A stretch of 59,294 bases of DNA, counting the filler, from Globobulimina sp. (lineage: Eukaryota), in NCBI GenBank assembly GCA_003354225.1. It is 7 parts of 7 records of this genome, joined end to end, with 100 filler letters (N's around TTAATTAATTAA, not from the genome) between each part and the next. Parts side by side here need not be neighbours in the genome. Positions count along the whole stretch, not along the records: positions 8,515 to 16,927 come from PIVH01000084.1; 6 more parts are not named here. One strand, 5' to 3'. This document shows positions 8,415-50,951 of the stretch, one piece after another. The notes beneath the pieces are model-generated. The model was not told the DNA's origin. It ran no database searches and was given only the letters and a program-made list of their open reading frames with translations. A program made the position numbers and the translations under genes. The first letter of the stretch is position 1. The number at the start of each line of letters is the position of its first letter.

Positions 8415-8514
8415 NNNNNNNNNNNNNNNNNNNNNNNNNNNNNNNNNNNNNNNNNNNNTTAATTAATTAANNNNNNNNNNNNNNNNNNNNNNNNNNNNNN
8501 NNNNNNNNNNNNNN
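8415..8514. other. Artificial contig spacer (N44-TTAATTAATTAA-N44)
   Basis: Identical 100-nt spacer with six-frame stops recurs six times. Confidence 0.98.
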
Positions 8515-9274
8515 TTAATTGATATGAAAAAACATGAAAATAGAAAAAGAAATGAATTTGAAAAAGAATATATTCCGTTACGTGATGAGATTACAATTTC
8601 AGTGTTGAATAATAATAATAAAGAAAATAAACAGTGGGCCATAAATGGAACAATATGTGGCTTGCGAACACAAAAGAAATCATTAGAAAATAAGTTAAAA
8701 AAATATGATGGGATATTTGTTAATTATAAAAATCAATTTCAAAAGCAAAATAAATTAATATTACAATCAAAATGGTTGGAATTAAAGAAAGAAATTAATA
8801 CAAACATTAATATGCCACCAATGTGTGGTATGTAGGATATGTGGATGAGGAAGGATTGGAGGGACTTCATGTGATATGTAATGACTGTCGGAGATCGTAT
8901 TTGAATCAAAAAGGAGTGTACGTTGCGAGTGCAATATATGATGGAAAAGATATATTTGATTACATCACCAAAATATTGCCAGATGTATACAAATGGAAAG
9001 AGTAATAAATAAATAAGTTTCTTGTCAAGAACCGCGAAAATATGATTAAAGTGTGTAAATATTCGTTGTTAATCGATCCATAACATAATATTCTTGTTAT
9101 TGCAGGTCTCCTGTAATCAACACGGTATTGAATATGCGCAGTTATAACTAAGTTAGTTCGTTTCTGAATAGTTTACTTCAGTCACTCAAAAACTATAGTC
9201 ACCGAGCAAAGATACCGCCGTTTGTCAAACAAAAAAGTCAAGAACCAAAGAACAAACGGGGAAAGTCACAATCA

Positions 9275-12200
9275 ATGGCTGATCCAAATATTACTTTCGT
9301 TTCTGGGACACATGTTCCAGCGAATACCTATTCATATCCGAACGACGCCCAATTGGGTCACACCATTATCGCGAAGAAAATTAAATCAGCAACAGGCAGA
9401 GGCTTAATATCAAGCCAAACTGTCGCCACAATCGCTGCTTTATTAAAATCAGAGCTGATAATGCCATATGGGAACGATAATGGCATCAACGTTGATTTGC
9501 AATGCATCAACGAAGCATACGCCAAAGCAAAATCGTATGAAGAGGGTCATCCAGAGGAAGAAAAGGCAAATCATAATGATATTGTCTCATTCCTTTCAAA
9601 CTCATTATGGTTCGATCAGAAATTAAAGAAAAGAAGACAGGCAAAATGGGAAAAGCGCCAAACGTTATTCGATATCCATGGACAAATTGAAAGTTGGGAT
9701 TTCCCAAACCCACCACGAGCAGTCATGGTATGTCAATCAAGGGATAACGAAGAATCTGACGACAGCGATAAGGATAATGATGAAAATATCGTCGTCGATG
9801 GTACTGGTCACAACTCCGATGATCAAGAACAAGACGAAGAAAATAAGGGTATCGGGTCAGAAGAGGACCAAATTTATGATTTAGAGCAAGAAGATATTGA
9901 GATTCCTGAGCCCCCCAAACCAGTGCAAGGACAATTTGATGAGTTAGCCGATATCAAAAAACGAATTATGAGATTTCAAGATTCAAATTTTGTAAAAGCT
10001 GATCTCGCGAAACAATATGAAAAAGCATTTCAATTTCGATCAAAAGTAGTGATTGATTATAGGATGGAATTGATAAAAAACATTGGAGCATTTATGAAAA
10101 AGAAAACAATCAAATACTCCGAAGTCGCACACAAATGTAATGCGTATAATCATCGCATGACACAGTATTTAGTCAATTTTCGTATTTTTTACCATTTACC
10201 GCCAGCAACTCACAAATTTGCGCGATTATTGAACATGAAAGGGGAGGCTCTACGGACCTCGATTTTGGATACCTATTATAAACAATTTGCGTTCCTGGAA
10301 GAAAAAGGATACATCGACAAAAACGGGAAACGCGTCAAGGAATATAAGACATTGGATGTAGTGCCGCGGGAATTGTACAAAGCGAAGAAGAGCAAAGTGA
10401 AATACATCGGAGTCGGTGCAGATGGTCAGGAAACTGCAACTGTTGACCCCTGGGATGAACTAAATACTTATCGTCCAAAGAAAAAGAGACGTTTGAATAA
10501 CTCGTCAGACGATGATGAAATAGAATACGTCAATCCAAATAAAGATAAGCCAGCATCCACGACCTCGTCCGATCCGAATACAGTGTCAAATCAATGGAAA
10601 AGTGACGTAGTGTCACAAATAAACCAAATTTCAAAGGCCATTGGCGTCATTAATTCAAAAAATGTAGATTCGCCACAAAAACAGTCCGTGGAGGCAATGT
10701 TAAAAAAGGAAGGAAGAGGAATAAATCGATGGAGTAAAGAACAATATGTCCACAAAACCACCCTTGGATTCGAATTAATTGCCAAAAACACAAACAAATA
10801 CAAGAATACATCCACCCATCAAGACACATATCAGCGACTGATGAATCACGCAAAAAACAAGGACGTTATTAATGATATTCAAGGTTTGTTAGGATCTGTA
10901 TCCTATTTTCATGTGAGCCGTGTAAACAATTTGGTTGTTTACAATCTTTTGTATGACTTTGGATGATTTTGAATGGATTTATTAACAAAACAAATCTGTT
11001 TTTTCTGGAGGAAAATGTTTTTGTTCTCCCTTGAATTTTGTACATAAAATTTTGAAATCAAAGATATGAAAAATTCGCCAGGTACAATAAAGGAATATGC
11101 ACTCAGTTTGGTGCAGTTTTGTACGAATTTTAGCCCCAACGAGAAAGTGAACGGCATCTCAACAGTTTTGACAATGCCAAGAATAGTTCACTTTGTTGGT
11201 TAGAAAAGTAACAAAAGTCCCAATGAGAAAACATTAATAATGATGTAAAAGTGAGTCACCGTGTTGACCCACTTTTACACGATGTAATTATGAGTAACTG
11301 CCCTTTCCTTTTACTTTTATTTAGATGGTGACTCAGAGGACAGTGACTCAGAAAGCAAGAAAAAGAAAACAAAGAGAAAGAAGGAGTCAAAGGAATCAAC
11401 GGCACTTAGTGAGTTACTAGCATTTGTATGGAGAATTTGTCCCAAATCATTCACAGAGATCATGTTAGGAATAATGCGATACACTAAAAAGACCAAACAC
11501 ATGGTCAGAGCCAATGCGACATCAACAATTCACAATATATTTCAGGATAAGTCGAATGTATCAACTTTTTTCAATGAAGTGATAGTTATTTTGAATGAAT
11601 GGTCAATGTATGTTGGAAATCGACGCAATGAAATTATTCAGAAATTACATGTTTTGTATAAGAAAAAGGACATTAAAAAAGTAACCCCCTCAGATGAGGT
11701 TGATCGATATATGAGAATGTTGAGTGTGGCCATAAGTGACTGGCAAAGGGGATCGATTTTGATCATGCAGTTAATAGTAGACCCGCTCTTAAATGAACAA
11801 CTATTTTATTTATTTTTAAATGAATCCATGGCGATTGCTATGGAGGATGAGATATCAATTACCATCGCTTTGCAACACGTAACTCTCCGTTCAAATTTAG
11901 AAACGGAAAAGAAATTGCAACATTTAGTAGATCCAATGTGGATGCAACTAGTTTTTACAGATTACGAACATGTTAAATTATTAAAAACACAACAAACGAT
12001 ATTTAATCACCAACAATCAGTCCAACAATCCATACCAACACAAAACACAAACACTTATGACAAAAACAAGAATAACAACAGAAATAACAACACTAACTAT
12101 GGCGGCAGATTTAGTAATAACAGAATGCCACAATTATCAAAAAAAGACAAAGAAGAAAGGATTGGAAGGATAAAACAGTGGATGGAAACAACGAGAAACA

Positions 12201-12382
12201 AATTAAAAGATCAATACAAAAAGGATTTTTCAGGACATTTCTGTGCTGGACACCACATGGACAGTGAACGTTGCTTATCAAAAGGACCAATTTGTAGAAC
12301 CGGAGGCATGCAACGAGTACATCACTGCCTTTGTGGATCCACATCACATACTATTGATCACTGCAAGATTATTTTCAAATAG
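9275..12382 (+). CDS. gag-like protein of element 1, spliced: 9275..10883 + 11325..12382
   Basis: Donor CAAG|gtttgt at 10884 and acceptor ttttatttag|AT at 11324 join in frame. C-terminal finger FCAGHH..RC....ICR...HHCLCGSTSHTIDHC is typical of YR-retroelement gag. Confidence 0.75.
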
Positions 12383-12547
12383 TTTCCTTAAAATTGACTC
12401 ATATTTAATTGAATAGACAATGAGTTAAAAAGTTTGATTTAATTACAATTCCCCCCATTTTTTCCACTCTTTCCGACCTTTATTCATAACACAAACGTTT
12501 CTGAGTATAAATAAACGTTTCTAAGTTTACTTTATGAATTTACTTAG

Positions 12548-14283
12548 GTAAAATAAAAGAAGTATCCAAAATTGACAAGGAATGTGCCGATTTACTCCAG
12601 AAATTGGTAGACCTTTGGGCCCATCCACCTAAAATACCCCCGCATTTTAACATAAATTTATTTGAGGATTACTTAAGCAACCACCCAAATGGAGGTATAG
12701 CAATTCAGTTTATTAAAGATGGATATCCTCTATGGCTAAAAAATCGTGACCCAACAAAATTGTCAAGAAATGTGTCAAATATTTGTAGAGATAAAAAGGA
12801 ACTAAAAGCAATTTTAACGCGAATGGTAAAAGAGGCACAAAAAGGTTATATCACAACCACTCATAAACAACTACATTATAATTTGAATTTATTATGTGTA
12901 CCAAAGCGTAACAACGAGACTAAACTACTCACAGAAATACGCGTTGCACGTCATGGTTCCTATAGTACACGACGTACAGTTGCAATAAATGAGTTGGTTG
13001 ACAAAGCACAATGTAAAATGCCAACTTTACCAAATATCCGACAATATATCAATTTGCTTTTACAATATAAATATGTTTCTTTGAGAGATTTAAAAGACGC
13101 TTTCCGACAATTAAACCTAGCATCTGCCGATTCTGACTATATACAATATTGTATTTTTGGTCTAAGTTTTAGGGATCTACGGCAAGCATATGGTTTAGCC
13201 TCAGCAGCAGCAAATTGTCAACACTTTGCACAAATTTTAATATGGATTTTAGAAAACAAATATTTAAATTTTGATCAACGGAATCGGATTTTAGTACACA
13301 TTGATGATTTTATTTTAGCTGCAAATAGTGAGGAAGAGGCACTTGAGATGGCAATGAGATTCGATTTAATGTGTAAACAACTACACGTAAATGTTTCTCA
13401 TGAAAAGGATGAAAATGCAATTCAAAAAGGTATAGTACATGGTTTCGGATTTGATTTAAATACGAAACATGTTTTTATACCAAAGCATAAGTTTGAGGAA
13501 TTAGTAAAGGCCCTCATTTGGATTATTCAGTATCGCTATGCATCAGGACATGCTTTAGAATCAATTTGCGGTAAAATGATGCATTGGGCACAGTTACGAA
13601 AACCCGCAAAAGTACTATGTTATAGATTGCTAAAAATGATACATGAAAGAATCCGAATGCATAAAAGATTGAAGAATAAAATATTTTGGATACCAGATTT
13701 AATTGTACAGGATTTCAAGTTCTGGCTAAGCTATGCCAACTTTATGAGAATTGTTACCATGCAATCAGTTATAAATCAACCTTCGATAACAATTACAGGT
13801 GCAACAGACGCAAGCAGTGAAGGTGGTGGTTTTATCATTGGTAAACACTACGCTTGCTACAGATTTTTGGATACAATCAATGCGGAAGGAATGAACCATA
13901 GGAATATGTCCATAAACTACCAAGAGGCCCATGCCGTAATTATGTTAATTCACAATTACAAATCGTTTCTAACTGGCCATAAATTATTATTGTACATTGA
14001 TAATACTTCAGTGTTATTTAGTATGTACAAACACTGGGCGGGAAGCAATAAATTAATGGAATACATCCAAGAGATAGTACTGTTAATGTGTACATTTTGC
14101 ATTGATATTCACGTTGAATTCATACCATCAAAATTCAATGGTTTAGCAGATGCTTTATCCAGATTTGAGATGGATCGGTTTTATCAAATTGTCGATAATT
14201 TCAACTTATCGATCAATAGATATCCCTCAAAGTTGAATTATTATCCAAATCTACCATTATTAAACGGTTCATATGACTTTTAA
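12548..14283 (+). CDS. Reverse transcriptase-RNase H of element 1 (no ATG near start; begins at splice acceptor)
   Basis: VPK..R, DLKDAFRQL, AYGLASAA, VHIDD; DIRS-type RNase H TDAS..INYQEAHA..YIDN..NGLADALSR. Confidence 0.9.
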
Positions 14284-14422
14284 GAACGTGCACAAACAGT
14301 TCCCATGATTCAAGCAGATTTTAGGAGGACTAGAAAATTTTTCTTTGGACTAACTCTTTTTTCCTTGAATTATTTTCAGATTGAGAAACGTTTCCATAAC
14401 ATATGATGTGTTTTAATTTCAG

Positions 14423-15729
14423 GTTTAACATCGCAAGCATTATGGGAAGATTCAATGTCCAGAGCAGATCCTGCAACAACTGAACGAATTTTGAGAGACA
14501 CTTTCAGATCGAAACGGATAACCACAAAATCAAATTACGTCTCAGTTTTAAAAGATTGGTGGGGATATTGTGTAGAACGAGGGAGAGACCCCTTCACCAA
14601 ATATATTGATCCAAGATTAGCAATTTATTGGCAATACGATAGATGCCACAGATTAGGATCATGTAATTCACACTCAACATGGTCAGCAGCTTTATCTTGG
14701 TGGACAAAATCGTGTGGTGGCGAGCCAAGGTATTTAGAGAATGGATTCTATGATACAATCCATAAACAAATGGTCAAATTATATTCAAAACCCAGAGCAG
14801 TAAGGCTACCAATCAGAATACATTGGATTGTAAATTATTTAAAATCACTAAATATAACACCAGAAACGTGGCAGATTTGCCCCTTGAATGATTTAACAAA
14901 AGCCTTTCTAATCACAATGGGATTTTTTACCATAAGTAGACCAGCTGAATTACTCTATACTGATAGCACCGAAAACAAAGAATGGGAAGTTATCACAACT
15001 GGCCTACGTTGGGGAGATATCACAAAACATAACACCAATAAACCATATATTCGGCGATATTTAAAATTGATAATTTATTGGTATAAAAACCAAGAATTCC
15101 GCGATACTCCGAAAGAAATATATATGGCTCCACCTATATGTAATAATGCTGATAAATGTCATTGCAAATATTTGGATTTTTATGCAATGTATAAGGTTTT
15201 ATTAAGGAGAAGAAAATTAATTTATAGACAACTTATACAAAAACGCAAACAAAACAAAGGCAAACTTAGCAAAAAATTAGCAAAACAAATATCAAATTTA
15301 AACACAACAAAATTCAATTATATATTTGTGAGTAGTGAGGGAGTTGTATGGCGACCGGCACATTTAGCAAAAATCATGAAACATTTTACAAAAACACTTA
15401 AATTGAAGAATCCAACAGCTTTCCCTCCATACAGCATACGTATAGGCGCAGTTTCATTATGTAACCAGCAAAATATTGATTTATTAAAAGTCCTTAGATT
15501 CGTAGTTTGGTCTGTAAAAAATTTACCGCATGTTTCCAATCGTTATATTTTGTTTACCATCAAAGATTTGAGAATCGTTCCTTTTGAAATGATACACGGC
15601 CGTAATCGACCAGGAAGAGCGAATATTGATAACAGCAATGGTAAATTAGTAACATTTAATATTTGGGAGAGCAATGCGAGCCGACAATTCTTTGCATCAA
15701 CAATATCGGAGATTGAATCGGATCCATAA
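14423..15729 (+). CDS. Tyrosine recombinase of element 1
   Basis: SRPAEL (R), WYKNQ (K), YSIRIGA, W, SNRYI (Y). The open frame extends upstream of ATG 14455 to acceptor tttcag at 14422. Confidence 0.85.
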
Positions 15730-16076
15730 ACGAATTGAATGACCAATTGACTTTTACTTGCGGTTCCATGACAACACCACACGTTTTGACGAAAAGACTA
15801 AGACTCAGAAAACTAAAAACCAAAAAACACGTTTCACGACACACAGGGACACACGGGAAGGTGATTTATTTATAATTTACAAATTAGTTTAATTATATAT
15901 TATATTTAAATCAATTCGGAGAATGAAGTTTCTGATACTTTATATTTCCGGAGTTTTACCCCGAAAGAATATCAGTTTGTGTCGTGGAATGCATGGTTAA
16001 ATGAACAGAGTTCAATTCTCTGTCGTTCCCCAGAATGGTCTTTATCTTTGGAGAATATTTTTGGGAACAATCATTT

Positions 16077-16830
16077 TAATATTGCTTACATTTAACACTT
16101 CAATGGATGAGCGTGCGCCTAATGGATAAGCATCATCCCATCCACATATGGCATATAATTGTTGCTGATGAACAATGCATGACAAATCTGTCCGGAAAGC
16201 TTGCATATTGGTCACATTCGAAAGCCATGAAAATGAGGAAAGATTAAGTATTTGCAAATAGTTCAACGAATAAGGAAATTGATCAGAATATCCACCCACA
16301 ACAAATAAATATGCATGGTAACCGTCATTGGTTGAAGCCAAACAGCCGCCGGCATCAATATCAGTGACAGTGGATACTGCTTTCGGTATCGTTGGAATTA
16401 TAGTGGTTGGAGAAATTAAGCGTAGAAATCTCGAATCTGTTTATTTTGCTCCCCAATGGATCAATAATCCATAGAATGTTATCCAATGCTGTGTAATATT
16501 GAGGGTCGCCATACACTGCATTTGTTAAGTATGTAGAGCCGTGATCAATAAATGAATCATTATTCAGATTAAATTGAACAAGCTGTCTATTATCAGGGTA
16601 TCCGCCAAGTAAATAAATGACATCGTTAGCTGTATCATATGCGACAGCCATTGAATGTGCAGCTCTTGGTAAGAAGGAATTTGTTCCTGCAGTCCAATTT
16701 CCATCATACGAATAATTTATCGCAATTGTAACTTGACAAAATTACAAGAGTGTGACAATGTTATTTAATAGAATATAGATGTTTAACTTTGTTCCAATGA
16801 TAAGAAAACGGACAAAAATAAATACTCCAT
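16077..16830 (-). pseudogene. Secreted kelch/beta-propeller repeat protein, frameshifted and 3'-truncated
   Basis: Kelch-like motifs LPRAAHSMAVAYD..IYLLGG, YLFVVGG, LYAICG. Frameshift near 16400 between ORFs 16361..16651 and 16042..16341. Repeat pattern stops at ~16077 against the end of element 1. Confidence 0.6.
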
Positions 16831-16927
16831 GCAAGAATACTAAAGTTTTATTTATCTTTGATCTTTTTATAAAATAAATAGAGATAATATGCTGTATGCA
16901 ATCCTTATATTTGGTATTTTGTTTGGT

Positions 16928-17027
16928 NNNNNNNNNNNNNNNNNNNNNNNNNNNNNNNNNNNNNNNNNNNNTTAATTAATTAANNNNNNNNNNNNNNNNN
17001 NNNNNNNNNNNNNNNNNNNNNNNNNNN
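16928..17027. other. Artificial contig spacer
   Basis: N44-TTAATTAATTAA-N44. Confidence 0.98.
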
Positions 17028-17153: not shown

Positions 17154-20100
17154 TTAATCCGAAACTTTCGGAGATAAATTCATTAGGTCCACTTGGTACA
17201 GGTAACTGAATCTCTTTGTTTCTTTTACAAATTGAAGAAGTTTTTTCCAGATTCCAACTTGAGTCAAAATATCTAGTTCCTTCTCAATGTCTGGAGGTCG
17301 TCGGATGTTATATGGATAGAACAACTCATCTAAATAGAGGAGTCCTCCATTTCTGAAACAGATCCAGATTGTTTGAAGCGAATTAATTAATCGTTGTCGT
17401 TGGTGGATATAATTAGGGCAAACGCTGAAATAATGCGATATCGTCTCTCTTTTATTTAGGTTGCATTTATTACAATTTGGTGACTGAATTATTGACTTAT
17501 CGGTATCTGTAAATTTATGCTTATACAAGAAATTATTCAATTCAATATGGCCAGAAACAATTCTATTAAGCATGGCTGATTCATCTTTATTTAGATATTT
17601 GACTATTTTATTTAGTTTATTATGGAGGGTTGGGTTCGCGCAGTACATTTTATAGCTGTCTTGTGAGGATCGCGTATTTCTGTGCGCCCATTGATCACTC
17701 CATTGGAATCTAATCTGTTTATGCAATTGCGTAATGGTGGTATTGTAGGATATTTCTGTAAATAAGTTTGGGTCAAATCTTGTATGTTTTGCGGCAAAAT
17801 TGGCCAATCTATCCACTTCATCATTGAATTCATTATTATTATGTGATTTAATTTTAATAAATGATATAAAAACGTTTGGTTTATTATGTTGGATTTGTAA
17901 TAATTTAATAAATATATTTTCAATTATTATCTTTGTTTCATTATATCGCGGGAAATTAAAACCATTTATGAATTGAAGAGCAGGTAGATTATCAATGTAA
18001 ATTTTGTAATGAGCCAATAGATTATCTGGGCGATGTAATATATAATTTAATATCATATGTATCGCCTCAATCTCTGCTGTTGTTATCGTTACTGGAATCT
18101 TAAAATAATATTGTTGTTTGAAGGGATTTTTATGCGATGGTTGGGGAGGGATATAAATGGCAGAGCCTCCTTTTCCTGGATTGGGGTCACAAGAACCATC
18201 GGTAAATGCGATTGTTATTAAGTTATCAATGGGAGTTGTTGGGGTTGCTGCAGTTAGATTTACTGAATAATTTGTTGGGAAATCATTCAAATTATAGGTG
18301 GGCGAGGAAGTTATTTGTGTTTTAATCATTTTTTCAAAATTCTGAGTGAGAACTTTTATCTGTGAGTTCGTTTGGCAATAATTCGATGCAATTATTAATG
18401 GATTTTTGTTTAAGTTTACATATTTATTTGGTTTATTTTTATATTTCCTTCGATATTTATTATTTTGTATAATTTGTCGATATTTCGTTAAGGCACTGTA
18501 TGTTTTATGTAATGGGTGGTAATAATTATTGTAGTACACTCTGGCGAGCTGCCTCATGGTTAGGTAATGGGCTCTTTTCTCGATTGGCTCTATTTTTAGG
18601 ACAAATTGTAATATATCAATGGGCGAATCTAATCTGCACGGAATTGCCAATCGGAGGAATTTGTTTTGGAGGGTTCGTAATATATTCTTGGTATCATATG
18701 GAAAGTAGTGAGTTAATCCATATTCTATTCTGGATCTCGCTAATGATTTATATAAGATTGCAATCGATAATGGTGTCAATTTTATGCCCGATTTAATGGT
18801 AAAGTATAATCGCCAGTAACTACGCATCGTTTTCGCCTTTATTTTATCAAAATGTGCATGGAAATTAAGTTTCTCATCAAACCATAATCCAAGATAACGG
18901 GCTGAGTGTTCATATTGTATTTGATGAGTATGGATGTAATATTTACTTAATTTGGTTTGTTTCTTCGTAATTGGGTCATTCTTTATTGTATATTTAGGAT
19001 AGTATTGTATAGGATTGCTATGTGAAAAGTTCATGGAAGTACATTTTGATGGATTTATTAATAACTGCCATTTATCACACCATTGGCTGAAATTATTTAG
19101 TTCTTTTTGTAGGAATTTATATCGGATCGGATCTTTTGATCCGGGACTGGTCCAAAAAGCGGTATCATCCGCAAAACAGGCAAAGTGAACAAAATTTGGA
19201 TGGCTTATTGTAAAATCATTTGTAAAAAGTATGTATAGGATAGGGGAGAGAGCTGAGCCTTGAGGCACTCCAATTGGTTGTGCTACCCAATTTGACTCTG
19301 CTTTTTTGGCGATAACCTTTGTAAATCTGGATTGGATAAAGGATGCCAATACATTTAGTATATTGCCTTTAATATTATTTTTAATTAATTTATATATTAA
19401 GCCATTATGCCATACACTATCATATGCTTTAGAGAAGTCCGTAAATACAACATCAGTATCACTGACCATATCAAACGAAGTTTGTATGTCAGTGATAAAA
19501 GTCGTAAGTACGTCATCACAGCATCTATTTATTTGGAATCCGCATTGGTAATTATCAAAGATTTTATTCTCTACACAGAAGTGTTGGAGTCTGTTAGCTA
19601 GGACTTTCTCAAAAACCCTTCCAAGGCAAGAGGATATTGCAATGGGTCTGTAGTTCTTTGGATTACTATGATCTTTGTAAGGCTTTGGGATTGGTAGAAG
19701 GTGTGAGAAGTTCCAATATCCCGGGAACACACCATTAGTCAAACAGTTATTAAACAGCGGGAGGACAGTATCAATCAAAACTTCTCCTCCATGCTTTATC
19801 ATTTGGTTATGAACTCTGTCGGGACCGTACGCTTTATGTGTATCTAGGTTCCGTATAACAGAGCGAATCTCATATTTAAGGATTGGATCATTCAATATTT
19901 GGTATTTATTGTTCGTTATTAGAATATCAGTATCAATTTGTGATGGTGTTGGGATTCGGGACTGTTCATTATAGTTTAATTTATCTTGCATTATATTGTT
20001 TAAATCATTTGGATTATTTATAGGGTTATTTCTATGGTTTGTTAGGTATTCTGGGACATATTTATTGATATATTTATGCCAATTTTCATGTATTTGGTTG

Positions 20101-21470
20101 GATTTGGGCTTTGGAGGTCTCGTCATAGCCTCTTGGAGGACCTTCGCCTGTTTGACAGGATTTATTATATTTTGTTCATTCTTAAAGTTTAATGGAGGGA
20201 TATTATTTGTGGATATATCATTGGATTTATTACTGTTTATGGTGCGCCAAAATCGTCTGCCATAATCTTTGCATGTCTGGATATATTTATTTATACGTAT
20301 ATTATAGTCATTTTTCGCAGTTTTTATGGCATTACATTTATTGGATTGGATTCTATTCAGTCGGCGTTTTAGTGCAATGTACCTTGGGAATAGGTGGAAA
20401 TCCGTCAATTTCCGCTTTGCGTTTTTCTTAATTCGTTGGATTCTTCTCCTCAATCTTTTGCATCTTTTTTTCAGTTTTTTTATTTTATTATTCCACCACG
20501 GTTTGTGGCCTCTGTAGTAGTGTTTGTATCCAATTGTTTGTTCTGCTGTATATAAAATAAGATATGTTAGTTGTTGAGTGTGGATGTTTGGGTTTGTGTC
20601 AAATATAGTTTCTTTTATATTCGTTTCTAGTGTTTCCGTGTATTTGGCCCACTTTCTCTGATCTGAGAGGTTCCAGGTTTTCTTTGTCTCACTGAAACCA
20701 AAAACATTCTCTATTTCAAAGGTGGTGATAATGGGCACGTGGTCTGAACAGATTGGGTCATATAGCGAGTGGAGGATAGACCATTTAGTATGTTTTAATT
20801 GATTGGATATTAATGTTAAGTCAATGGAGGATTCAGTTTTATAGGATTTATGGATGTGTGTGAATGATGGATTATTAACATTCAGTATTTGCATTCCGAG
20901 GAAATCTAAAGCATCTACAAAGTTATTGGACTCTGTGGTTGATTTTTTGCTGCCCCATATCACATTTGGTATATTAAAGTCGCCAGCAATTATGTTTTTG
21001 GATACATTTAATGGATATCCAAAAAGTTGATCAATGTTTGGGTTTCTGGGGCAATTATATAATGAATGGACACCAATATCTTCCTCGCCACAGTGTAATA
21101 TCACACTGGTTATGTGGCAGTTTCTCGTTCTGTCATCATGGTTGTAGTTTGGCGGGGAGCTCAATGGTGTAACTAATAAGGTTTCTCGGTACAGAATTGC
21201 TGTTTCTGTGCCGGTATAATGGACTTTATATTTAGGAAAGTATTTAATGGGGAAATGGATTGCGTGGGATTTATTATTTTTGTCTATGTATGTGGAATTC
21301 TTTGGATTTACCGCATATCGTAATGTGGCACTCCATTCCTGAAGTAGTAGGAAGTCAATTTGTTTGGAGCACATCATTTGGTATATTTTATAGCATTTCG
21401 CTTCTTGAGACATATTTGAAGGATTTATCATCCCATTTATGTTATATTGTAATATGTTATATTTTACCAT
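17154..21470 (-). CDS. LINE ORF2: APE endonuclease, RT, RNase H, C-terminal CCHC (1438 aa, intact)
   Basis: QYNING/LLLQE/GDFN/IDLT/SDH; GPD, YRPIA, DFSKAYDSV, GVPQGSALSP, FADD, YLG; FTDGS..AEIEAI..IDN..KSH..NDEVDRLA; CNKC..ETISHYFSVC. Confidence 0.95.
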   Translation of the reverse strand: MVKYNILQYNINGMINPSNMSQEAKCYKIYQMMCSKQIDFLLLQEWSATLRYAVNPKNSTYIDKNNKSHAIHFPIKYFPKYKVHYTGTETAILYRETLLVTPLSSPPNYNHDDRTRNCHITSVILHCGEEDIGVHSLYNCPRNPNIDQLFGYPLNVSKNIIAGDFNIPNVIWGSKKSTTESNNFVDALDFLGMQILNVNNPSFTHIHKSYKTESSIDLTLISNQLKHTKWSILHSLYDPICSDHVPIITTFEIENVFGFSETKKTWNLSDQRKWAKYTETLETNIKETIFDTNPNIHTQQLTYLILYTAEQTIGYKHYYRGHKPWWNNKIKKLKKRCKRLRRRIQRIKKNAKRKLTDFHLFPRYIALKRRLNRIQSNKCNAIKTAKNDYNIRINKYIQTCKDYGRRFWRTINSNKSNDISTNNIPPLNFKNEQNIINPVKQAKVLQEAMTRPPKPKSNQIHENWHKYINKYVPEYLTNHRNNPINNPNDLNNIMQDKLNYNEQSRIPTPSQIDTDILITNNKYQILNDPILKYEIRSVIRNLDTHKAYGPDRVHNQMIKHGGEVLIDTVLPLFNNCLTNGVFPGYWNFSHLLPIPKPYKDHSNPKNYRPIAISSCLGRVFEKVLANRLQHFCVENKIFDNYQCGFQINRCCDDVLTTFITDIQTSFDMVSDTDVVFTDFSKAYDSVWHNGLIYKLIKNNIKGNILNVLASFIQSRFTKVIAKKAESNWVAQPIGVPQGSALSPILYILFTNDFTISHPNFVHFACFADDTAFWTSPGSKDPIRYKFLQKELNNFSQWCDKWQLLINPSKCTSMNFSHSNPIQYYPKYTIKNDPITKKQTKLSKYYIHTHQIQYEHSARYLGLWFDEKLNFHAHFDKIKAKTMRSYWRLYFTIKSGIKLTPLSIAILYKSLARSRIEYGLTHYFPYDTKNILRTLQNKFLRLAIPCRLDSPIDILQFVLKIEPIEKRAHYLTMRQLARVYYNNYYHPLHKTYSALTKYRQIIQNNKYRRKYKNKPNKYVNLNKNPLIIASNYCQTNSQIKVLTQNFEKMIKTQITSSPTYNLNDFPTNYSVNLTAATPTTPIDNLITIAFTDGSCDPNPGKGGSAIYIPPQPSHKNPFKQQYYFKIPVTITTAEIEAIHMILNYILHRPDNLLAHYKIYIDNLPALQFINGFNFPRYNETKIIIENIFIKLLQIQHNKPNVFISFIKIKSHNNNEFNDEVDRLANFAAKHTRFDPNLFTEISYNTTITQLHKQIRFQWSDQWAHRNTRSSQDSYKMYCANPTLHNKLNKIVKYLNKDESAMLNRIVSGHIELNNFLYKHKFTDTDKSIIQSPNCNKCNLNKRETISHYFSVCPNYIHQRQRLINSLQTIWICFRNGGLLYLDELFYPYNIRRPPDIEKELDILTQVGIWKKLLQFVKETKRFSYLYQVDLMNLSPKVSD

Positions 21471-25437: not shown

Positions 25438-25537
25438 NNNNNNNNNNNNNNNNNNNNNNNNNNNNNNNNNNNNNNNNNNNNTTAATTAATTAANNNNNNN
25501 NNNNNNNNNNNNNNNNNNNNNNNNNNNNNNNNNNNNN
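25438..25537. other. Artificial contig spacer
   Basis: N44-TTAATTAATTAA-N44. Confidence 0.98.
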
Positions 25538-33930: not shown

Positions 33931-34030
33931 NNNNNNNNNNNNNNNNNNNNNNNNNNNNNNNNNNNNNNNNNNNNTTAATTAATTAANNNNNNNNNNNNNN
34001 NNNNNNNNNNNNNNNNNNNNNNNNNNNNNN
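33931..34030. other. Artificial contig spacer
   Basis: N44-TTAATTAATTAA-N44. Confidence 0.98.
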
Positions 34031-42404: not shown

Positions 42405-42504
42405 NNNNNNNNNNNNNNNNNNNNNNNNNNNNNNNNNNNNNNNNNNNNTTAATTAATTAANNNNNNNNNNNNNNNNNNNNNNNNNNNNNNNNNNNNNNNN
42501 NNNN
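42405..42504. other. Artificial contig spacer
   Basis: N44-TTAATTAATTAA-N44. Confidence 0.98.
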
Positions 42505-42666
42505 TTACACACAGAAAATGATATGTAATCTCTTCACTGTCACAACTTTCAATGAGAGGAAGTATTATTTCGTACCAATACCATCTCCTTTTATATAAAA
42601 TTGATATTTTGTAATTCGACTTTTTATAAGCCGCTCTAAATAATTCCATTACTATTTCTTCATTTG
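42505..42666 (-). CDS. Start of an ORF running off the contig; candidate N-terminus of the element 2 RT
   Basis: Phase-1 acceptor ttgtacatag|CA at 42667 followed by ~54 stop-free codons to the contig end. Same position relative to gag as the RT in element 1. Confidence 0.45.
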
Positions 42667-43281
42667 CTATGTACAAATATATATATATTCAACTTTTTAA
42701 AAGATATATGTGTCCTGACCACACCACATATGCCCCACCATTTTTCTATGGATCTTACGCTAATCCAAACATACAACACTGTATTCTTGCAACCATCAGA
42801 TATAATTTTATCTCCTTACTTGCTAACGCACTCTTTATTTATTATAAAGACACTCAAATAATAGTTGAGGACATTCAAATAATGCATAACAAGGCAAACA
42901 AAACACAATTTTTATGTGCAACTCACAATATATATTTATTTCAATATAAACAGAGGAGTTTTAGTTTACTGCTAAAATAAAATTAAATTACACCATACCC
43001 CTTTCTTTTTAAAACCCCCTCAAAATTTATTCTCTCTTTTTCATTTTATTAAAAACTAAAATCATTTCCATACACAAATATATATAGAAATAATGGATCC
43101 TAATAACATTCCAATTATATATAATATGCCCACATATTTTATCATCACAATCCATGGACAAACATACAAATAATAAGAATAATAGATATAAAAATATTGT
43201 ATATATTTGAAATGAGAATAAAATTAATGACAGATCCGTCATCAACAAATAAAATTGGATCCAAAACATCGCAAATCTCCC

Positions 43282-46212
43282 TTAACGTCCGCGACCTGCA
43301 AATCTCTTCGATTGCGCATTGGGACAGTCATAGGAGGTATGTTCATTTGCAATGCCACATCTTTCACAATAATGCGGATAGCCGCATAATAAAAACTCAT
43401 CCTTGAATTTACAAACATAATTATAATCAACCCAAAAATAACAAGGTTTCTCTCCATAATATTTATCTTTAATAAAATAAGATCCATCATTCAAATTATA
43501 AAATCTCGCTCCTCTTTGATAGGGTTTATTTCCCTGACTCGAATCCCTCCGATTATTTGCATTCTGATTATAATTTCGACGACGTTGATAACTATTATCC
43601 TCATACGAGTCACGCGAATCTCTCCCATCCCTCGTATCTCTATCTCGTCTCTGCTTTTTTCTTGGCGAACCATATGGTGTTCCTCCATATTGCGATTGAT
43701 TCGGTGGTGTTTTATTATAACTCCGATCCCGACTTTCCCTCAATCTCTTTCTTAACCTTCTATTATTTCTCTCTAATTTATTATTATTTTTATTTACTAA
43801 CTTTGGGCAATTCCTTTTTAAATGTGGTCCACCACAATGATAACATTTTATTTTTCTATTATATTTTCCCTGTTTGTCATCCACTGCTTCTCCACCAACA
43901 TTCTTTCCAACTCTTTTCCCAACATCTTCCATCAATATGTCATTGTCACCATCTCCTACAAATAGTAATTTACATTCATTCGGCAAACATTCAATCGCAT
44001 ACAACTTACTTTCCTCTGAATTCATATGCAATTTCCATGAATGTGAGAATTCAGCGGATTTCCAACTTAATATACCTTCATCATTATAATCCCTCCATTT
44101 ATTAATATATAAAGCAATCGATACTTTTTGCCAGAATATACTCGGCGATATTGCCTTATTATTTATCATTGGAAATAATTGAGTTTTTGCAAATATTCTC
44201 ATTTCATTTATATTCCTAATAATCAAAGAATATAATTGGTTAAATCTAACTTGCTTCGCCGAATATGATAATAACATATCCAACGCCCTCAATGTGATGG
44301 TTGTCCATAATGTATGAAATGTTATTTTATTACTTATAAACTTTTTCAATGCTGATTTTATATTAACTCCATAATTCAAATGAATTTTCCAATGACTTGC
44401 CCACATAAACTTTATTATATAGAAAGGATCTCCGAAACCAAATACTAAGAAATGTATAAATTCCTTTAACGCCAATTTTAGCTCAGCTTGTTTCAATAAA
44501 TTGATACCATCATTCTTATTAATTTTATCATGTAACATTCCTCCTAAAATAAAACAATAATATCAATCCATAGCAAACAATCAAAATAAACAAATATACA
44601 GAATACAAATAACATATATAAAATTAATATAAACATTTTAGTATTATTCCTTTAATCATAATAAAAAGAAATGGACACATATGTGGTGCTGATAAACGCG
44701 TAAAATAATAAAGGTTTTAAACATATGAAATACATAAAATATCTCCGATACTAAAGATATATGCCCCAACAAACACAATACACGCACGTATTGGAAAAAT
44801 TATATTTTTTGATTGCCGGGCAGGGAACACAATAGTTTTGCATACAAAATTCAAGAAATTAAAGATATAATAAAGGGTACATGATACATACTTGTTGCAA
44901 TGTGTATCATCGCATTACGTGTATCTATCGGCGTCAGCTTGGGTTTTCTCAGAATCCCCCAAATATTATCAATGCTTTCCGCCATCAATTCATTCACCGC
45001 ACTCATGGATCCTTTGGGGGTAAAGATCTTCTTCAAATGGTCCAAATCATCACTCGTCGGATTATATTTATTATCTTCCTTCCCCAGACCATGACTATCC
45101 GCATATCTTTTGATATTCTCCATTGAATTCACTTTATATTCCGCGGATTTGCTTTTTTCAATCTGTTTTTCTAATTTATCAATGTAGGATTTTAACAATT
45201 CCGTATTGTCTCCGTCCATTAATTCATCCGCATCGAGAATATCATTGATTTCCTCTCTCGTTACCTCATCCATTTCATCATCGAAACGGACTTTTCCTTC
45301 ATCTCCATCTCGTTCTTTCATATCCTCATCACTCGATCCGTCAGAATCGTCAGATTCCGGTTTATCTTCCTTCTTTTTCCTAACTATATTCCTTATTTTT
45401 TTACCTAATTTTGATTTTTTCTTTTTATCTGGTTTTGGTTTTCCCGCTTTCGGCTTCTTCCCCTTTTTGGGTTTCTTAGCGGAATCAGCCTTTGGATTCG
45501 GAGGAGGGACTAAAGAGGCAAAGTGATTATTTACTCCACCTTGAAATGCCTGGAATGCACCCGATGCAATGCTCTTTAATTCAGCCAAATTAAATATATC
45601 TTCTATCTGCTTCGATTTTAAATTCGCTGCTTTCTTAAATATCTCCTTCGATAATAGACCTAAAGCCAACGCCTCCATAACCTTCGAGCAATTCCTTCTT
45701 AATTCCAACACAGTCTCCTCCTCTTCCTCCACCAATTCAAAAGCACCTAATCGATCATATTCTACATCCATAAATGTATTATTTTCCTTCATTAAAAACT
45801 TATTCAATTTCGCATGTAATGTATTCCATAAATCCTTCAATGTTAATAAAACATTAAAGTCCAATGTACTCATCACCTCTTTGAATAAAATCGTTAATAA
45901 AGAAGCAACTTTTTGCTTTTTATTCAATACATCGATCTCATTCTCACCTTCCTTTTTATTAAATCGTGGATATAATCTCCTAAATAATTCCACTTTGCAT
46001 TCAAATTCAATCGCCACCATCATCGTTACCTGCGCATTCTGTATAGATTGCGGATTTCTATCCTGTGGCTTATCAAAATCAATGCTCGAAGCATAGCCCG
46101 GAAATAATAAAAAGGTGGTATTCATCCATTCATCCAAATCTCTCAATTTTAATCCCTTCCGTAAAGCATACGCTTTTGCTTTTGATATACCTGTAATTAG
46201 ACCTAACGCCAT
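43282..46212 (-). CDS. gag-like protein of element 2, spliced: 46212..44892 + 44543..43282
   Basis: Donor ACAA|gtatgt at 44891 and acceptor ttttattttag|GA at 44544 join in frame. CYHCGGPHLKRNC knuckle, R/D/S-rich tract, terminal CYFW..C..C..PHYCERCG..HTSYDC finger. Confidence 0.78.
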
Positions 46213-46705
46213 ATTTCAATGTACTACGTAAGTAATCTCGATATTAATCTGACTGTATAAACAACGTATTAATATCTGGCACGTAATTGCCTGACTTTCA
46301 CGCGACTTTATTAGCCCTAAGATATATCACTAATCTCTCTTTCTAAATATTATGCAAGAAAAAAAGAAAGAAGCAATCCAACAACACAAAAACAAAAAAC
46401 ACTCTCAGTCAGTCACTTCAGTTTACTTCTAATTGAATGAAACTTTCGTCGCTTACACAACGTTCAGTTTTATTGACAATTATTCGATGTGGATAAATAA
46501 CAATTAACTTAAATTTAATTATTTATATTTCATAACACATATTAACCATATACAATAATCCCAAACCTATTCCAATCTCCATCTCGTTCATACTTAATAT
46601 ACATTATAATACATACAAATTAATATTAAATAAACTAAATACATCCACATCGAAATAATTACATTCAATACTTACTATCTAACTATATCCCCCCCACCAT
46701 TTAAC

Positions 46706-48036
46706 TTAATCTGTCAATTCATATTGACATAAACTTGTTTGATAACTATTAATATAATCCATAGAGAATTTTTCTTTATTATTATTAAACTCCGTAACCA
46801 AATCACATTCATTTGCATCCATATCTAACAAAATTCTATTATTATTTTTACCATAAATAAATATTTTTGCCAAACCAATCAAATCCCTCTGTGTATGTAT
46901 TAAATATCTATAAATCGCTGCTGTCAATTTCCATCTCCCAGCAAATGCAATTAAACTCATTGGCACACATTTTTGTTGAAGAGTTGTGGCAAAACCCTTC
47001 CTCAATCCATGAAATCTATATCTATCTGCTTCCCAAAAGCCCATTTCATAAATCACTTTCTTCCAATATTTTTTAATTGTCCTCAATTTAAAGCTTCTTT
47101 TAATTGGTTGAAACAAATAATATTTCCTCAAACTTTTCTTATGGATTTTCTTTAAATCTCTCTTTTGTGTATGATAAATATGATATAGAATTATCACCGG
47201 ATCAATCTTATTATTTGTCCTCCCAATTCTTAGCATAACATCTTTTCCCTTCGTCTTCCCCTTCGAGTTTCTCAGCCTAACTCGAACATGATGTAAATCA
47301 TCAAAAGCAAGGGAATATGCATTGTTTTGATAGATTCTCTCCTTATTGTCATCCAACCAATAAAAATCTAAATCAGATAAATAAATACCATAACCAACAT
47401 AGGCTTTATTATTATTCTCATAACATTCAGCTCCTCGTAATCCTAAAACACCGACAAATAATAAAGACATAGCAAACATATACCAAAACAGTCTGCTTTT
47501 GTCCCTCCATATTTTCTCAAATGACAACCAATTCAATTTTAATTTCTTTTCATTATCTGTCAATATCAAATTATTGTATACTTTAAACATTAATATATAT
47601 TTTATAATTTGAAACAAAACATCTGCTGTCACCGGTAAAGTATCTGATCCTTTTCCCGGGTTTGTTTTCTTCACATATTTAGCCAATGCATATAGTGCCG
47701 GGTTGTCGGACCATGACTGAAACTGCCCACATAATTGCGCCACAAAATCAATCGATCTATATTTTAATCTCATCGTTGGCCAACAATTCAACCTCTTCTG
47801 CACCATACAGCACTGAATCGTATATAATTGTAAAAATGCATCCGGAGTCGGAAAAGTCCAGACTTCCTCATCAGTTAAACCAAAATTCCTCATCGTCTTC
47901 CAATAATATAGGAAATTCTTCATATATGTCGTCTCCGATGATTCCTTAACTCCACCCCCTAAAGCCATAAATAATAATTCTTTATATATAGGATTAACTT
48001 TTGACCATATTGGGTGATCATATTGTCTCCCTCTAA
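46706..48036 (-). CDS. Tyrosine recombinase of element 2
   Basis: GLRGAE (R), RNSKG (K), FHGLRKG (H-x-x-R), AGRW, IYRYL (Y). Starts at acceptor atatatag|TT (48037) with no ATG at the N-terminus. Confidence 0.9.
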
Positions 48037-49215
48037 CTATATATAATACATATAACAAAATATAAACACAGAAAAAAGTGGTTTTTCACACTTTTAACTA
48101 AAAATAAAACTGGTGCCCCCTGCCAAAATCAAAAACCATGACACCTACAGACACTGAACAATATATTCTTAAATAATATGCCATATTGCCTCTATAGTCA
48201 CTCGCTACACAATACATCGTCACTCCATTTATACAAAAACAGAAACGCTATCATTATATCCATCGTCATATATGGCAATATCGCTAAATTATTATACTAT
48301 TCATTGAAAATATTAACATAACACATATATATGCATTTTATCAATATATAACAAGACAGACGTTTCCTTGAGATATCTCATGTCGAAATGACTTGTTTCT
48401 GAGTACCCGGTCATACATTCATGATATCTGCGGGAAAGGAGTTGAAACCACGCAAATATTCACCAATTACATAATAAAACATTGCCACAATTATCTATTT
48501 GTATACATATCCATGGACAAACAATCTCTTTTTTGAGGGTAATAAATCCACCCAAATCCTCTGAAAAACATAAAAATGATGCAATCGAATCAAATAATCA
48601 CCAAATATACTCTGAAAAATTTAAAACAAATCCTTTTCAACAACGACATTCCTCTCAACTTAACATATTGCCAACAAATCACATTCTAATTTTATGTTGA
48701 AAACACCAATGATTTGCCATATATTTAATCAAATATTCACATTCTAACCCATTATGCATCGAATCTAACTTCAAACGTATATTACAACAGAAATTACACT
48801 CAAATCTGATGAGTAATCAAATGACAAAATATTAAAAATATATTTTAATTGTAAGAAAAATCTGTAAATTTAATCAAAATTGATGATATTATTCAAATTC
48901 TATTCATTAACAATAACAATAACAAATTAATACACAAATTATATGGAATTGTATACAAAATACCAGTCATTACTAAGTCAATCCGTTATTGCTGATAAAC
49001 GCAAACAACGTCGAATCAATACTCAGTCACAATAAATACATTATAATTCACCTTAATATCAGTCATCAAATACAAAAATATCCATTATTAACATATTAGA
49101 ATATGCAAAAGACAGCAAAACCAAATAATACATTACAAAATGATATAATTACACAAAATAAATGGATATTAACGTGAAATAAATGGATTCGAATCTACAA
49201 AGCTACGAAACCGAA

Positions 49216-50851
49216 TTACCATTCATGTATGTTCGGAATCTTACATTCTTTTGAAAAGTCCTTCAAAATCCACCCATTTCTCCTACATTCCTTTCTTGCT
49301 GCTTTTAACAACGATTTTATCTTAAACCTCGACGCCAAATCTGGGATCTTGTTTGCTTTCGTATTAATATAATCAATGTATAAATTTATTGATACTTCCA
49401 CGGCAAACATACAAATCCAACGGACCCCATCCTGTAGGAATTCATCATCTGAGTTTTTGTTGATTATAACAGATAAAACGTGTTTGTTATCTGTTTTTAA
49501 TAATATCTTTGTATGCGATTTTATTAAATGTTTGAACGTATGCAATCCTGTGATAATTGCTAACAGCTCAAAGTGTGCGATCGCATATTCTTTTACATAT
49601 TCTGTACGTAATGATCTGTACTCATTCGTAAACCTTTCGGGTATTGGTATTGCAAACCAATTCCCTTTATACCAACAACCAATCGCCGGATTCCAACCTA
49701 ATTCACGTTCACCGTTAGTCGCCGCATCAAAATGTATCTCGTCCTCTGGATATATCGGAGCACATATATCAAAAATCGACACCTTATTTACAATCCGTAT
49801 ATATTTTTTCCACCATAAAAAATCTAACATCTCCCATCTCTCTAAAATAATAATTACATTCTTCCTTCCATATAATTTTATACATTTATACAATTTATCT
49901 CTTAATCTTTTTAGAAAAGCCTTTCCCGGCCACTTAAATCCCGAGAAATCCTCCAATTTCCCAATAATCGATTCAAGCGTTTCTAAATCAACCACTTGAT
50001 GTAATAAAACCGCATTCAATAACTGTTCTATTTTAAATATCTTTACTTCCCTTATTATCACAGCCATATCTTCCGTATCCACATCAAATCCAATCATATC
50101 CAGATATTCATCCGGTCCCTCTCTCTTTTCTTGTTTTTCAACCAAACCTGCATTTAACATAAATTCTGAAAACTGCCCAAATATATTATTTGCAATTGAT
50201 TGCGAAGGAGGGAGAAAGAATAAATAATCATCAATATAATTATTGACAATTACCTTCAATAATTGTTTACAATCCATTTTTAATTTTATTAATAAATTAA
50301 AGAAATCCACTTCCTTAAAGATATTTAGTTCCTTCCTTGATAATACTTCCTTTGCTTTGTATATATTAAAAGATAATAAACGTAATCCATTAAATAATAA
50401 ATTATTAACAAATGGTAATATTGCCACCATTTTATTCTCTATTAACCATCTCTTAATACATAATCTATCCCATTTAAATAAAACTTTATTATCAAAGATA
50501 TAATTCCTATTCTTCTCATTCATTTTCTTATTCATTTTTTTATTATATTTCTTATAAAAGTATAATAAATTCCTTTTCTCAATACCTTCATTAATATCAT
50601 TCAATAATTCAATACCATTTATTTTAATGTTAAAATATCTACAAATTAATTGACCAACATCTTGAGTATGTTTTGAACCAGATCTGGTCCCCCAAAAATC
50701 ATATAAATCCGCAATTAATTTCTCATCAAATTGATAAATACAATTCTCAGGTTCAGTTATAGCTAAATATAACTGTCTGAATGCAGTCGCCAAATCTGTT
50801 TTGGCCAATTTAAACCCAGGACCCCATACTAAATACATCATATAACAATAA
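49216..50851 (-). CDS. Reverse transcriptase-RNase H of element 2, 5'-partial
   Basis: KTDLATAFRQL, FWGTRSG, YIDD, MIGF; RNase H FDAA..IAHFELLAI..KTDN..NKIPDLASR. Frame is open to the contig end. Confidence 0.9.
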
Positions 50852-50951
50852 NNNNNNNNNNNNNNNNNNNNNNNNNNNNNNNNNNNNNNNNNNNNTTAAT
50901 TAATTAANNNNNNNNNNNNNNNNNNNNNNNNNNNNNNNNNNNNNNNNNNNN
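50852..50951. other. Artificial contig spacer
   Basis: N44-TTAATTAATTAA-N44. Confidence 0.98.

Follow-up and report, generated by a model that had tools for sequence, protein, structure and literature searches.

A tyrosine-recombinase retrotransposon from Globobulimina sp. in which one ORF1 exon would probably be spliced alternatively to three downstream exons

The retroelement analysed here lies in a 59,294-base stretch of Globobulimina sp. DNA (assembly GCA_003354225.1; the whole stretch is called the window below), and its closest described counterparts are the Ngaro elements and the DIRS1-like and PAT elements. Ngaro elements are described, in the sections available of four papers, as carrying a gag-like open reading frame (ORF), a reverse transcriptase–RNase H (RT-RH) and a tyrosine recombinase (YR) in this order on one strand (PMC4157794; PMC8547959; PMC9210276; PMC13465315), and the published Ngaro ORFs overlap or are frameshifted, as far as the available parts of two papers go (PMC9210276; PMC3783388). 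DIRS1-like and PAT elements also combine RT-RH with YR, and excerpts of two papers give them a methyltransferase domain together with either inverted terminal repeats (ITRs) combined with an internal complementary region (ICR) or PAT-type repeats (PMC7192593; PMC4157794). How YR retrotransposons express their RT and recombinase is poorly understood, and the checked portions of these papers mention only overlapping or frameshifted ORFs. The window holds an intact YR retrotransposon with Ngaro-like architecture, in which a single splice donor near the end of a long ORF1 would probably be used with three alternative acceptors, each placing ORF1 in frame in front of another downstream ORF.

The window is discontinuous, consisting of seven pieces, each about 8.4 kb long, with N44-TTAATTAATTAA-N44 spacers in between (positions 8415-8514, 16928-17027, 25438-25537, 33931-34030, 42405-42504 and 50852-50951), and ORFs and repeats are not to be read across the joins. 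The YR element lies entirely inside the piece at 8515-16927, which has a GC content of 34%. Its four ORFs, all intact in this copy, follow each other as ORF1, a gag-finger ORF, RT-RNase H and YR. The succession of gag-like ORF, RT-RNase H and YR on one strand is shared with Ngaro, and neither has a methyltransferase, a protease or a DDE integrase. Unlike in Ngaro, spacers filled with stops lie between the ORFs, gag is divided over two of them and conserved start codons are lacking in three; the split direct repeats of Ngaro (A1 ... B1 A2 B2) were not found, in a test that is weak with undefined termini. We regard the element as Ngaro-like by architecture and do not assign it as a Ngaro member, the comparison having been made with published descriptions. 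Membership in the DIRS1-like/PAT group was considered and rejected, as neither a methyltransferase nor ITR/ICR was found in the window element.

Exon 1 would comprise ORF1 on the plus strand at 9275..10883, that is 536 codons (9275-10882) and one further base (G10883). It starts with the ATG at 9275, and the initial Met and the following GTHVP motif are common to two homologues. The donor, D1, is the GT at 10884..10885 (plus strand; CAAG/GTTTGT, phase 1). Without splicing, ORF1 reads through the donor for another 27 codons, meets a stop at 10964-10966 and encodes 563 amino acids (aa). The putative intron 1, from D1 to acceptor A1 (10884..11324, plus strand), is 441 nt long, contains 15, 6 and 8 stops in the three frames and ends in ...tatttag, which has the best acceptor tract of the element (pyrimidine fraction 0.90). 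It is followed by the gag-finger exon (11325..12382, plus strand), which begins with AT and, with the junction codon counted, has 352 codons before its stop. Acceptor A2 is the AG at 12546..12547 (plus strand; ...tacttag/GT) at the head of the RT-RNase H exon (12548..14283, plus strand; 578 codons including the junction codon, plus stop). Acceptor A3 is the AG at 14421..14422 (plus strand; ...atttcag/GT) at the head of the YR exon (14423..15729, plus strand; 435 codons including the junction codon, plus stop), which begins 139 nt from the RT stop.

At A1, A2 and A3 alike, a codon of the downstream ORF starts with the G of the AG, and hence all three acceptors are phase 1. The finger, RT-RH and YR ORFs open, after an in-frame stop, 10, 3 and 5 codons before their AG, and the first in-frame ATG is found at codon 46 of the finger ORF and 92 codons past the acceptor in the RT ORF. 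Joined to exon 1, the three would yield predicted in-frame fusions of 888 aa (536+352), 1114 aa (536+578) and 971 aa (536+435). Re-checking by coordinate confirmed what a preliminary description of this DNA had claimed on these points: the positions and phase 1 of the donor (10884) and of the acceptors (11324, 12547 and 14422), the opening of three ORFs a few codons upstream of a pyrimidine-rich AG, and the ability of the 536-aa exon to fuse in frame to any of them; its remark that the RT ORF has no ATG until about 75 codons past an annotated TTG start accords with the distance given above.

Inside the RT ORFs of the element family, 372 of 5934 codon boundaries (6.3%) carry a phase-1 AG, and the chance of finding one in all three short ORF heads of the window copy is about 0.51 x 0.23 x 0.32 = 0.04. 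The window by itself is only suggestive, and it is the relatives that give the proposal convincing support. The same roughly 4% chance, in AT-rich sequence that abounds in TAG and CAG, is what favours a reading without any splicing, in which coincidence and common descent account for the sites, and the ORFs are either relics or decoded by another mechanism. We consider this very unlikely, in view of the conservation set out next, which extends over 13 lineages and down to 32% RT identity, and of the four intact window ORFs with coding parts under purifying selection.

We found 94 strong homologues of RT-RH and 142 relatives of YR. Scanning metagenome contigs with the RT alignment yielded DNA for 15 loci (L001-L015), which represent 13 lineages (under 80% identical in RT), have GC contents between 31 and 62% and reach down to 32% identity in RT; many of these contigs derive from environmental metagenomes, and no relatives were found in collections of viral contigs and genome contigs. 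Since 13 lineages span such a range of GC, the element family resides in quite different hosts. Every ORF head covered by these contigs, the window included, was then surveyed, and the sites were verified by coordinate. A homologous phase-1 AG is present at 4/4 heads of the finger ORF (window copy, L001, L003 and L011), at 11/11 heads of RT-RH (window copy, L001, L003-L007, L010, L011, L013 and L015) and at 12/12 heads of YR (window copy, L001-L005, L007-L010, L012 and L014; nine lineages). L004 and L005 are 99% identical, so that the 11 RT copies amount to 10 lineages. All 27 heads thus carry a phase-1 AG, which is a YAG (pyrimidine-AG) in all but one, and pyrimidines make up at least 55% of the 20 nt upstream in 21 of the 27.

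The positions of these acceptors move by whole codons. Depending on the lineage, the RT acceptor lies 2, 6, 9 or 10 codons before a conserved Asp, and for YR the lineages differ by -1, 0 or +1 codon; the phase is always 1, and the sequence on the intron side is otherwise unconserved. The proteins in the databases point the same way: at the junction, 19 of 30 informative RT homologues have [LSTI][GEDA], as the codons NNA-GNN demand, compared with 26% of control windows (7733/29490), and their annotated N-termini are false ones that consist of translated pyrimidine tracts. The preliminary description had proposed to examine in related copies whether acceptor position and phase are conserved or random; both are conserved, with phase 1 in every head covered and displacement by whole codons.

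The donor is kept in all three DNA copies that cover the end of ORF1. At the same codon and in the same phase as in the window copy, L001 has CAAG/GTAAGT (9/9 consensus positions) and L003 has CAAG/GTACGT (8/9), and in both of them D1 is the best consensus match. A fourth relative, known as protein only (P0001), loses its homology directly after ...DIQ-G and continues with K-W, which would fit GGT-AAG-TGG and would imply a donor there as well. The window copy and L001 share 68 GT dinucleotides at aligned positions, among which D1 is the sole shared phase-1 site of at least 6/9 in ORF1 and the finger ORF; there is one more in the middle of RT. Another potential donor 30 nt downstream of D1 (CAT/GTGAGC) was rejected, being in phase 0 and, in L003, separated from D1 by a stop.

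The downstream ORFs, for their part, would need an upstream coding exon. Counted from the RT acceptor, the first in-frame ATG is at codon 92, 89, 95, 1, 1, 95, 92, 54, 124, 35 and 49 in the 11 copies, that is 89-124 codons away in six of them and at codon 1 only in L004/L005. The RT head before the ATG is 64% identical between the window copy and L001, with a nonsynonymous divergence (dN) of 0.29 and a saturated synonymous divergence (dS), as in the rest of RT, which is why we consider it to be under purifying selection and therefore translated. These data bear on a reading in which only intron 1 is real: Gag would consist of ORF1 and the finger exon, joined constitutively or nearly so, RT-RH and YR would have transcripts of their own or be initiated internally or at a non-AUG codon, and the AGs at their heads would serve another purpose or be inherited. 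Intron 1 is indeed short and has the best acceptor tract, an ATG stands right at the RT head in L004/L005 and at the YR head in L003 and L010, and the ORF1 query returned no long fused proteins. Most RT ORFs, in contrast, lack an ATG over the long conserved stretch just described, and phase 1 is retained through whole-codon shifts in 10 RT and nine YR lineages next to an unconserved intron-side flank, whereas phase would be irrelevant to an untranslated acceptor or a promoter. We therefore rate the restriction of splicing to intron 1 as unlikely.

Splicing from D1 to all three acceptors is further favoured by what lies between the ORFs. Stops close every frame of the spacers in 21 of 23 cases, the exceptions being RT-to-YR of L010 and L012, and readthrough or frameshifting across such spacers cannot join the ORFs. 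At 17 of the 27 heads the ORF opens 0-14 codons before the AG. A single polyprotein mRNA of ORF1, finger, RT-RH and YR, made by sequential constitutive splicing, would require donors at the ends of the intermediate ORFs. In its favour, a phase-1 GT in frame with the YR acceptor stands four codons before the RT stop in the window copy, L001, L004, L005 and L009. It is missing from the last 25 codons of RT in 5/13 copies and reaches at most 5/9 in the others; in L001, L004, L005 and L009 it is part of a CGT arginine codon, for which L014 has CGC. In the tail of the finger ORF, none of eight copies has a conserved phase-1 donor ahead of the stop. As conserved donors are lacking at both tails, a chain of constitutive introns is unsupported, and we take a polyprotein mRNA to be extremely improbable. 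A mini-intron from RT to YR was rejected for the same weakness of the RT-tail GT and its lack in 5/13 copies. In the GC-rich relative L010, the RT stop overlaps an ATG in the YR frame (ATGA, L010:2202-2205) and the spacer is open; this copy might also use stop-start coupling, and it keeps a phase-1 CAG acceptor 28 codons further on.

The same layout, with a YAG before each ORF as in a polycistron, is reminiscent of the resolution of operons by trans-splicing, which occurs in several marine animal and protist groups. The AGs might then be real acceptors whose partner is not the ORF1 donor, the 5' part being supplied in trans by a host spliced leader (SL) or by a short 5' leader exon of the element. 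Such a leader would have to contribute an ATG and a single further base, with identical phase, in all the hosts behind contigs of 31-62% GC. The element's own phase-1 donor is conserved in every copy where it is visible, no other donor-like site further upstream is shared (the GT close to the ATG of L001 is absent from the window copy), and an Rfam scan of the window gave no match, neither to an SL RNA nor to another RNA gene. A leader as the partner consequently seems quite improbable to us.

Several observations weigh against the one-donor, three-acceptor scheme. Its support comes from the comparison of DNA and proteins. Contigs of a run of unknown kind (X1) cover 8515-16927 at a depth of about 10 over exons, introns and flanks alike, and so behave like genomic DNA; among the joints listed from this run (15 of 19) none corresponds to a proposed junction, and most look like diverged copies. 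Fused proteins of 939-2680 aa were not found with ORF1 as the query, which is weak evidence, as ORF1 finds only two relatives even at near length. The window D1 is a modest consensus match (GTTTGT, 7/9), and the donor DNA comes from three copies only, of which L001 and L003 are frame-disrupted elsewhere. The acceptors are homologous within each class, which leaves about three strictly independent phase matches in addition to the codon shifts. Use of A2 and A3 would skip a stronger and nearer acceptor across 1664 and 3539 nt, respectively. The ATGs at some RT and YR heads, together with RT-to-YR spacers that are open in one or two frames in L010 and L012, make independent translation possible in those lineages. 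Finally, the completeness of the window copy is unproven, given that no terminal repeats were found.

Two further observations concern the coding sequences of relatives. The frame disruptions in ORF1 and the finger ORF are located at L001:1928-1931 and at L003:1075-1165 and 1987-2024, and the break in the ORF1 tail of L003 could instead represent an extra short intron. A protein of 430 aa (P0106), evaluated as a possible splice product, joins finger residues 1-197 to YR 178-425 away from the splice sites and was set aside as an internal-deletion derivative.

Taken together, the shared-exon, three-isoform scheme of the preliminary description keeps its structural core, which the comparison of copies strongly supports, namely the donor in 3/3 copies, the acceptors in 27/27 heads, the lack of any other conserved donor and the stop-filled spacers; the splicing itself, the pairing of sites, the set of isoforms and the roles of ORF1 and of the block behind the donor are what we infer from it.

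The domain labels of that description fared differently. The RT-RH ORF matches Pfam RVT_1 (E 6.3e-7; 29.7 bits at a cut-off of 29.6) and, below the curated cut-off, RT_RNaseH (E 0.002), and many RT homologues carry precomputed PF00078 and PF17917 annotations. YR of the window copy has no Pfam match itself; Phage_integrase (PF00589) is matched by 9 of 34 aligned YR homologues (best E 6.1e-6), and the catalytic-type residues R173, K222, R340, W363 and Y375 are invariant or nearly so. By family, the last ORF is accordingly classed from its sequence as a tyrosine recombinase. The finger ORF belongs to no Pfam family and gave sub-threshold leads only in Atlas (zf-CCHC and Retrotrans_gag clusters at 0.80-0.85); a PDB sequence search returned nothing meaningful for it or for YR. 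Its putative label as gag is based solely on its position and on a conserved C-terminal Cys/His motif (about 12257-12379) in which C317, C324, H333, C335 and C347 are invariant. With E values up to 0.1 admitted, none of the four ORFs matched a Pfam family of protease or DDE integrase, nor was there a Pfam match to a methyltransferase, the 578-aa RT-RH ORF giving RT and RNase H only. ORF1 has a domain conserved at its N-terminus, is acidic in the middle and carries a basic PKKKR(R/K) motif that P0001 has as well. Its only relatives detected are P0001 and P0002, each 40% identical, and searches of Pfam, PDB sequences and Atlas gave no match of use.

Immediately 3' of D1 lies a block that is conserved as nucleotide sequence in the alignment of the window copy, L001 and L003 (10884..10975, plus strand; counterparts L001:2091-2180 and L003:1261-1355), while the ORF1 protein is only about 40% identical. 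Its dS is 0.48, compared with values above 1.2 or saturated in coding parts. Conservation of this tail for its protein was rejected, as the copies use different frames and have a low dS: in L003 a stop follows the donor by two codons, and the short tail of P0001 differs as protein. Folding predicts a central hairpin for each of the three copies, which in L003 has two compensatory pairs, and the single-sequence z-scores are weak (-1.8, -1.4 and -0.2). A long stem that would sequester the donor was likewise discarded: its pairs are all invariant, it is the minimum-energy fold in the window copy only and the z-scores are weak. The block would be present only in unspliced RNA, because all three proposed splices remove it. 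Retroviral packaging signals are located 3' of the major donor. We regard the block as a candidate cis element for packaging or splice control, a lead and not a result.

According to the mechanism that we propose, one primary transcript would start near 9090. Left unspliced, it would be both the template for reverse transcription and the mRNA for ORF1 alone (563 aa), and it would have to be kept as template because the downstream genes would otherwise be lost on retrotransposition. The single phase-1 donor after ORF1 codon 536 (10883/10884) would be joined alternatively to one of the three phase-1 acceptors, giving ORF1-GagZF (888 aa), ORF1-RT-RH (1114 aa) and ORF1-YR (971 aa), so that every protein would bear the same N-terminal module with its basic PKKKR motif. 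As the element has no protease, this module would stay attached to the enzymes, a splicing-based counterpart of the Gag-Pol fusion. The post-donor block would mark or protect the unspliced genomic RNA. As to what ORF1 does, we can only guess at nuclear import, RNA binding or co-assembly. The shared N-terminus might also, as the preliminary description suggested, direct RT and YR to the particle.

The 5' end and 5' untranslated region of the element are probably represented by 9083..9274 (plus strand). Similarity to L001 begins near 9083, a block at 9088-9193 is conserved with L001:327-432 (blastn 67.6% over 111 nt, and alignment), and at about 9092 a large number of X1 contigs diverge. A high-copy repeat at 8796-9092 lies immediately 5' of the element, with a summed contig depth of about 550 compared with about 10 for the element and its flanks; loose contig ends are numerous at 8821-9092, and the repeat occurs once in the window. 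It may be part of the element's 5' end or an unrelated repeat. On the other side, blastn and alignment support a 3' untranslated or 3' end region at 15730..16035 (plus strand), whose true terminus is undefined and which contains a block (15874-16027) conserved with L002:3226-3379. An imperfect palindrome of 52 nt (15862-15913; 73% self-complementary) in the 3' untranslated region adjoins this block. No direct repeats of at least 20 nt at 75% identity were found between the element ends, and sensitive blastn of the 5' against the 3' region and of both against all loci gave low-complexity matches only and no terminal repeats; the inverted repeats seen are short and weak (22-28 nt at 74-82%). This test is weak, as both ends are present only in the window copy, whose termini are undefined.

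A second, distant YR element occupies 43285-50850 on the minus strand of the piece at 42505-50851, with an RT that is 26% identical over 266 aa. On the minus strand it comprises an RT-RH (50850-49219) cut by the piece end, a YR (48085-46709; Phage_integrase E 1.6e-5), an ATG-bearing ORF of 454 aa (46215-44854) and an ORF of 426 aa (44562-43285) that ends in a CCHC knuckle. The order of these ORFs suggests either two tandem copies or a permuted layout. Phase-1 YAGs with long pyrimidine tracts are present at the heads of YR (48037) and of the CCHC ORF (44544), and a phase-1 CAA/GTATGT (44891) precedes the stop codon of the ATG-bearing ORF by 12 codons. These sites would be in line with the scheme and are suggestive only, as there are several other candidate sites there. 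Elsewhere in the window, at 17154-21470 on the minus strand, there is an intact ORF of 1438 aa from a non-LTR (long terminal repeat) retrotransposon, with Exo_endo_phos_2, RVT_1 and RNase_H domains. In the distant relative L015, three tandem units of about 25 nt directly follow the stop codon of a gag-like ORF (L015:1624-1720).

Beyond the YR elements, the proposed expression strategy is closest to that of retroviruses, which likewise use one upstream donor, several downstream acceptors and the unspliced RNA as genome; the element has this set of a single conserved 5' splice site and several 3' splice sites, here as sites read from sequence. The env mRNA of avian retroviruses borrows the gag start codon in frame. 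Foamy viruses produce pol from a spliced mRNA, according to the part available of PMC9143442. The element differs from retroviruses in that an exon of 536 codons would be shared and fused in frame to three products, including the polymerase and a recombinase, and in that it has no LTR, protease or env and belongs to another class of elements. Splicing is also used by copia, Ogre and a plant pararetrovirus. As in the LTR retrotransposons copia, BARE and Ogre (for BARE, as far as the available text of the source goes), splicing of the element's own RNA would control which proteins are made, whereas splicing in those elements removes pol or an intron inside one polyprotein and none of them is known to fuse a common N-terminal ORF alternatively to separate enzymes. 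For YR retroelements, no description of splicing-based expression was found in the available parts of six papers (PMC7192593; PMC8547959; PMC6681497; PMC9210276; PMC4157794; PMC3783388), where the splicing in the available part of PMC7192593 is that of an artificial reporter intron only. Within these limits the scheme appears to be undescribed, as the preliminary description had supposed.

We lean slightly towards a still broader statement: that a widespread YR clade, in hosts of 31-62% GC, expresses its whole proteome as ORF1 fusions by obligatory splicing from one donor to three acceptors, that a conserved element in the shared intron marks unspliced RNA as genome, and that a retrovirus-like RNA economy has evolved independently in a class for which overlapping ORFs are assumed, with RT and recombinase as permanent ORF1 fusions and no protease. 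If the scheme is true, it would account for the translation of ORFs that lack start codons. Dependence on alternative splicing would then extend to a retrotransposon that is neither of the LTR type nor retroviral, which would have to shield its intron-bearing RNA and get it exported. The scheme would also represent a protease-free way of tethering polymerase and recombinase to a common module. For annotation it would provide a rule, as gene callers now report separate proteins with false N-termini from intron sequence.

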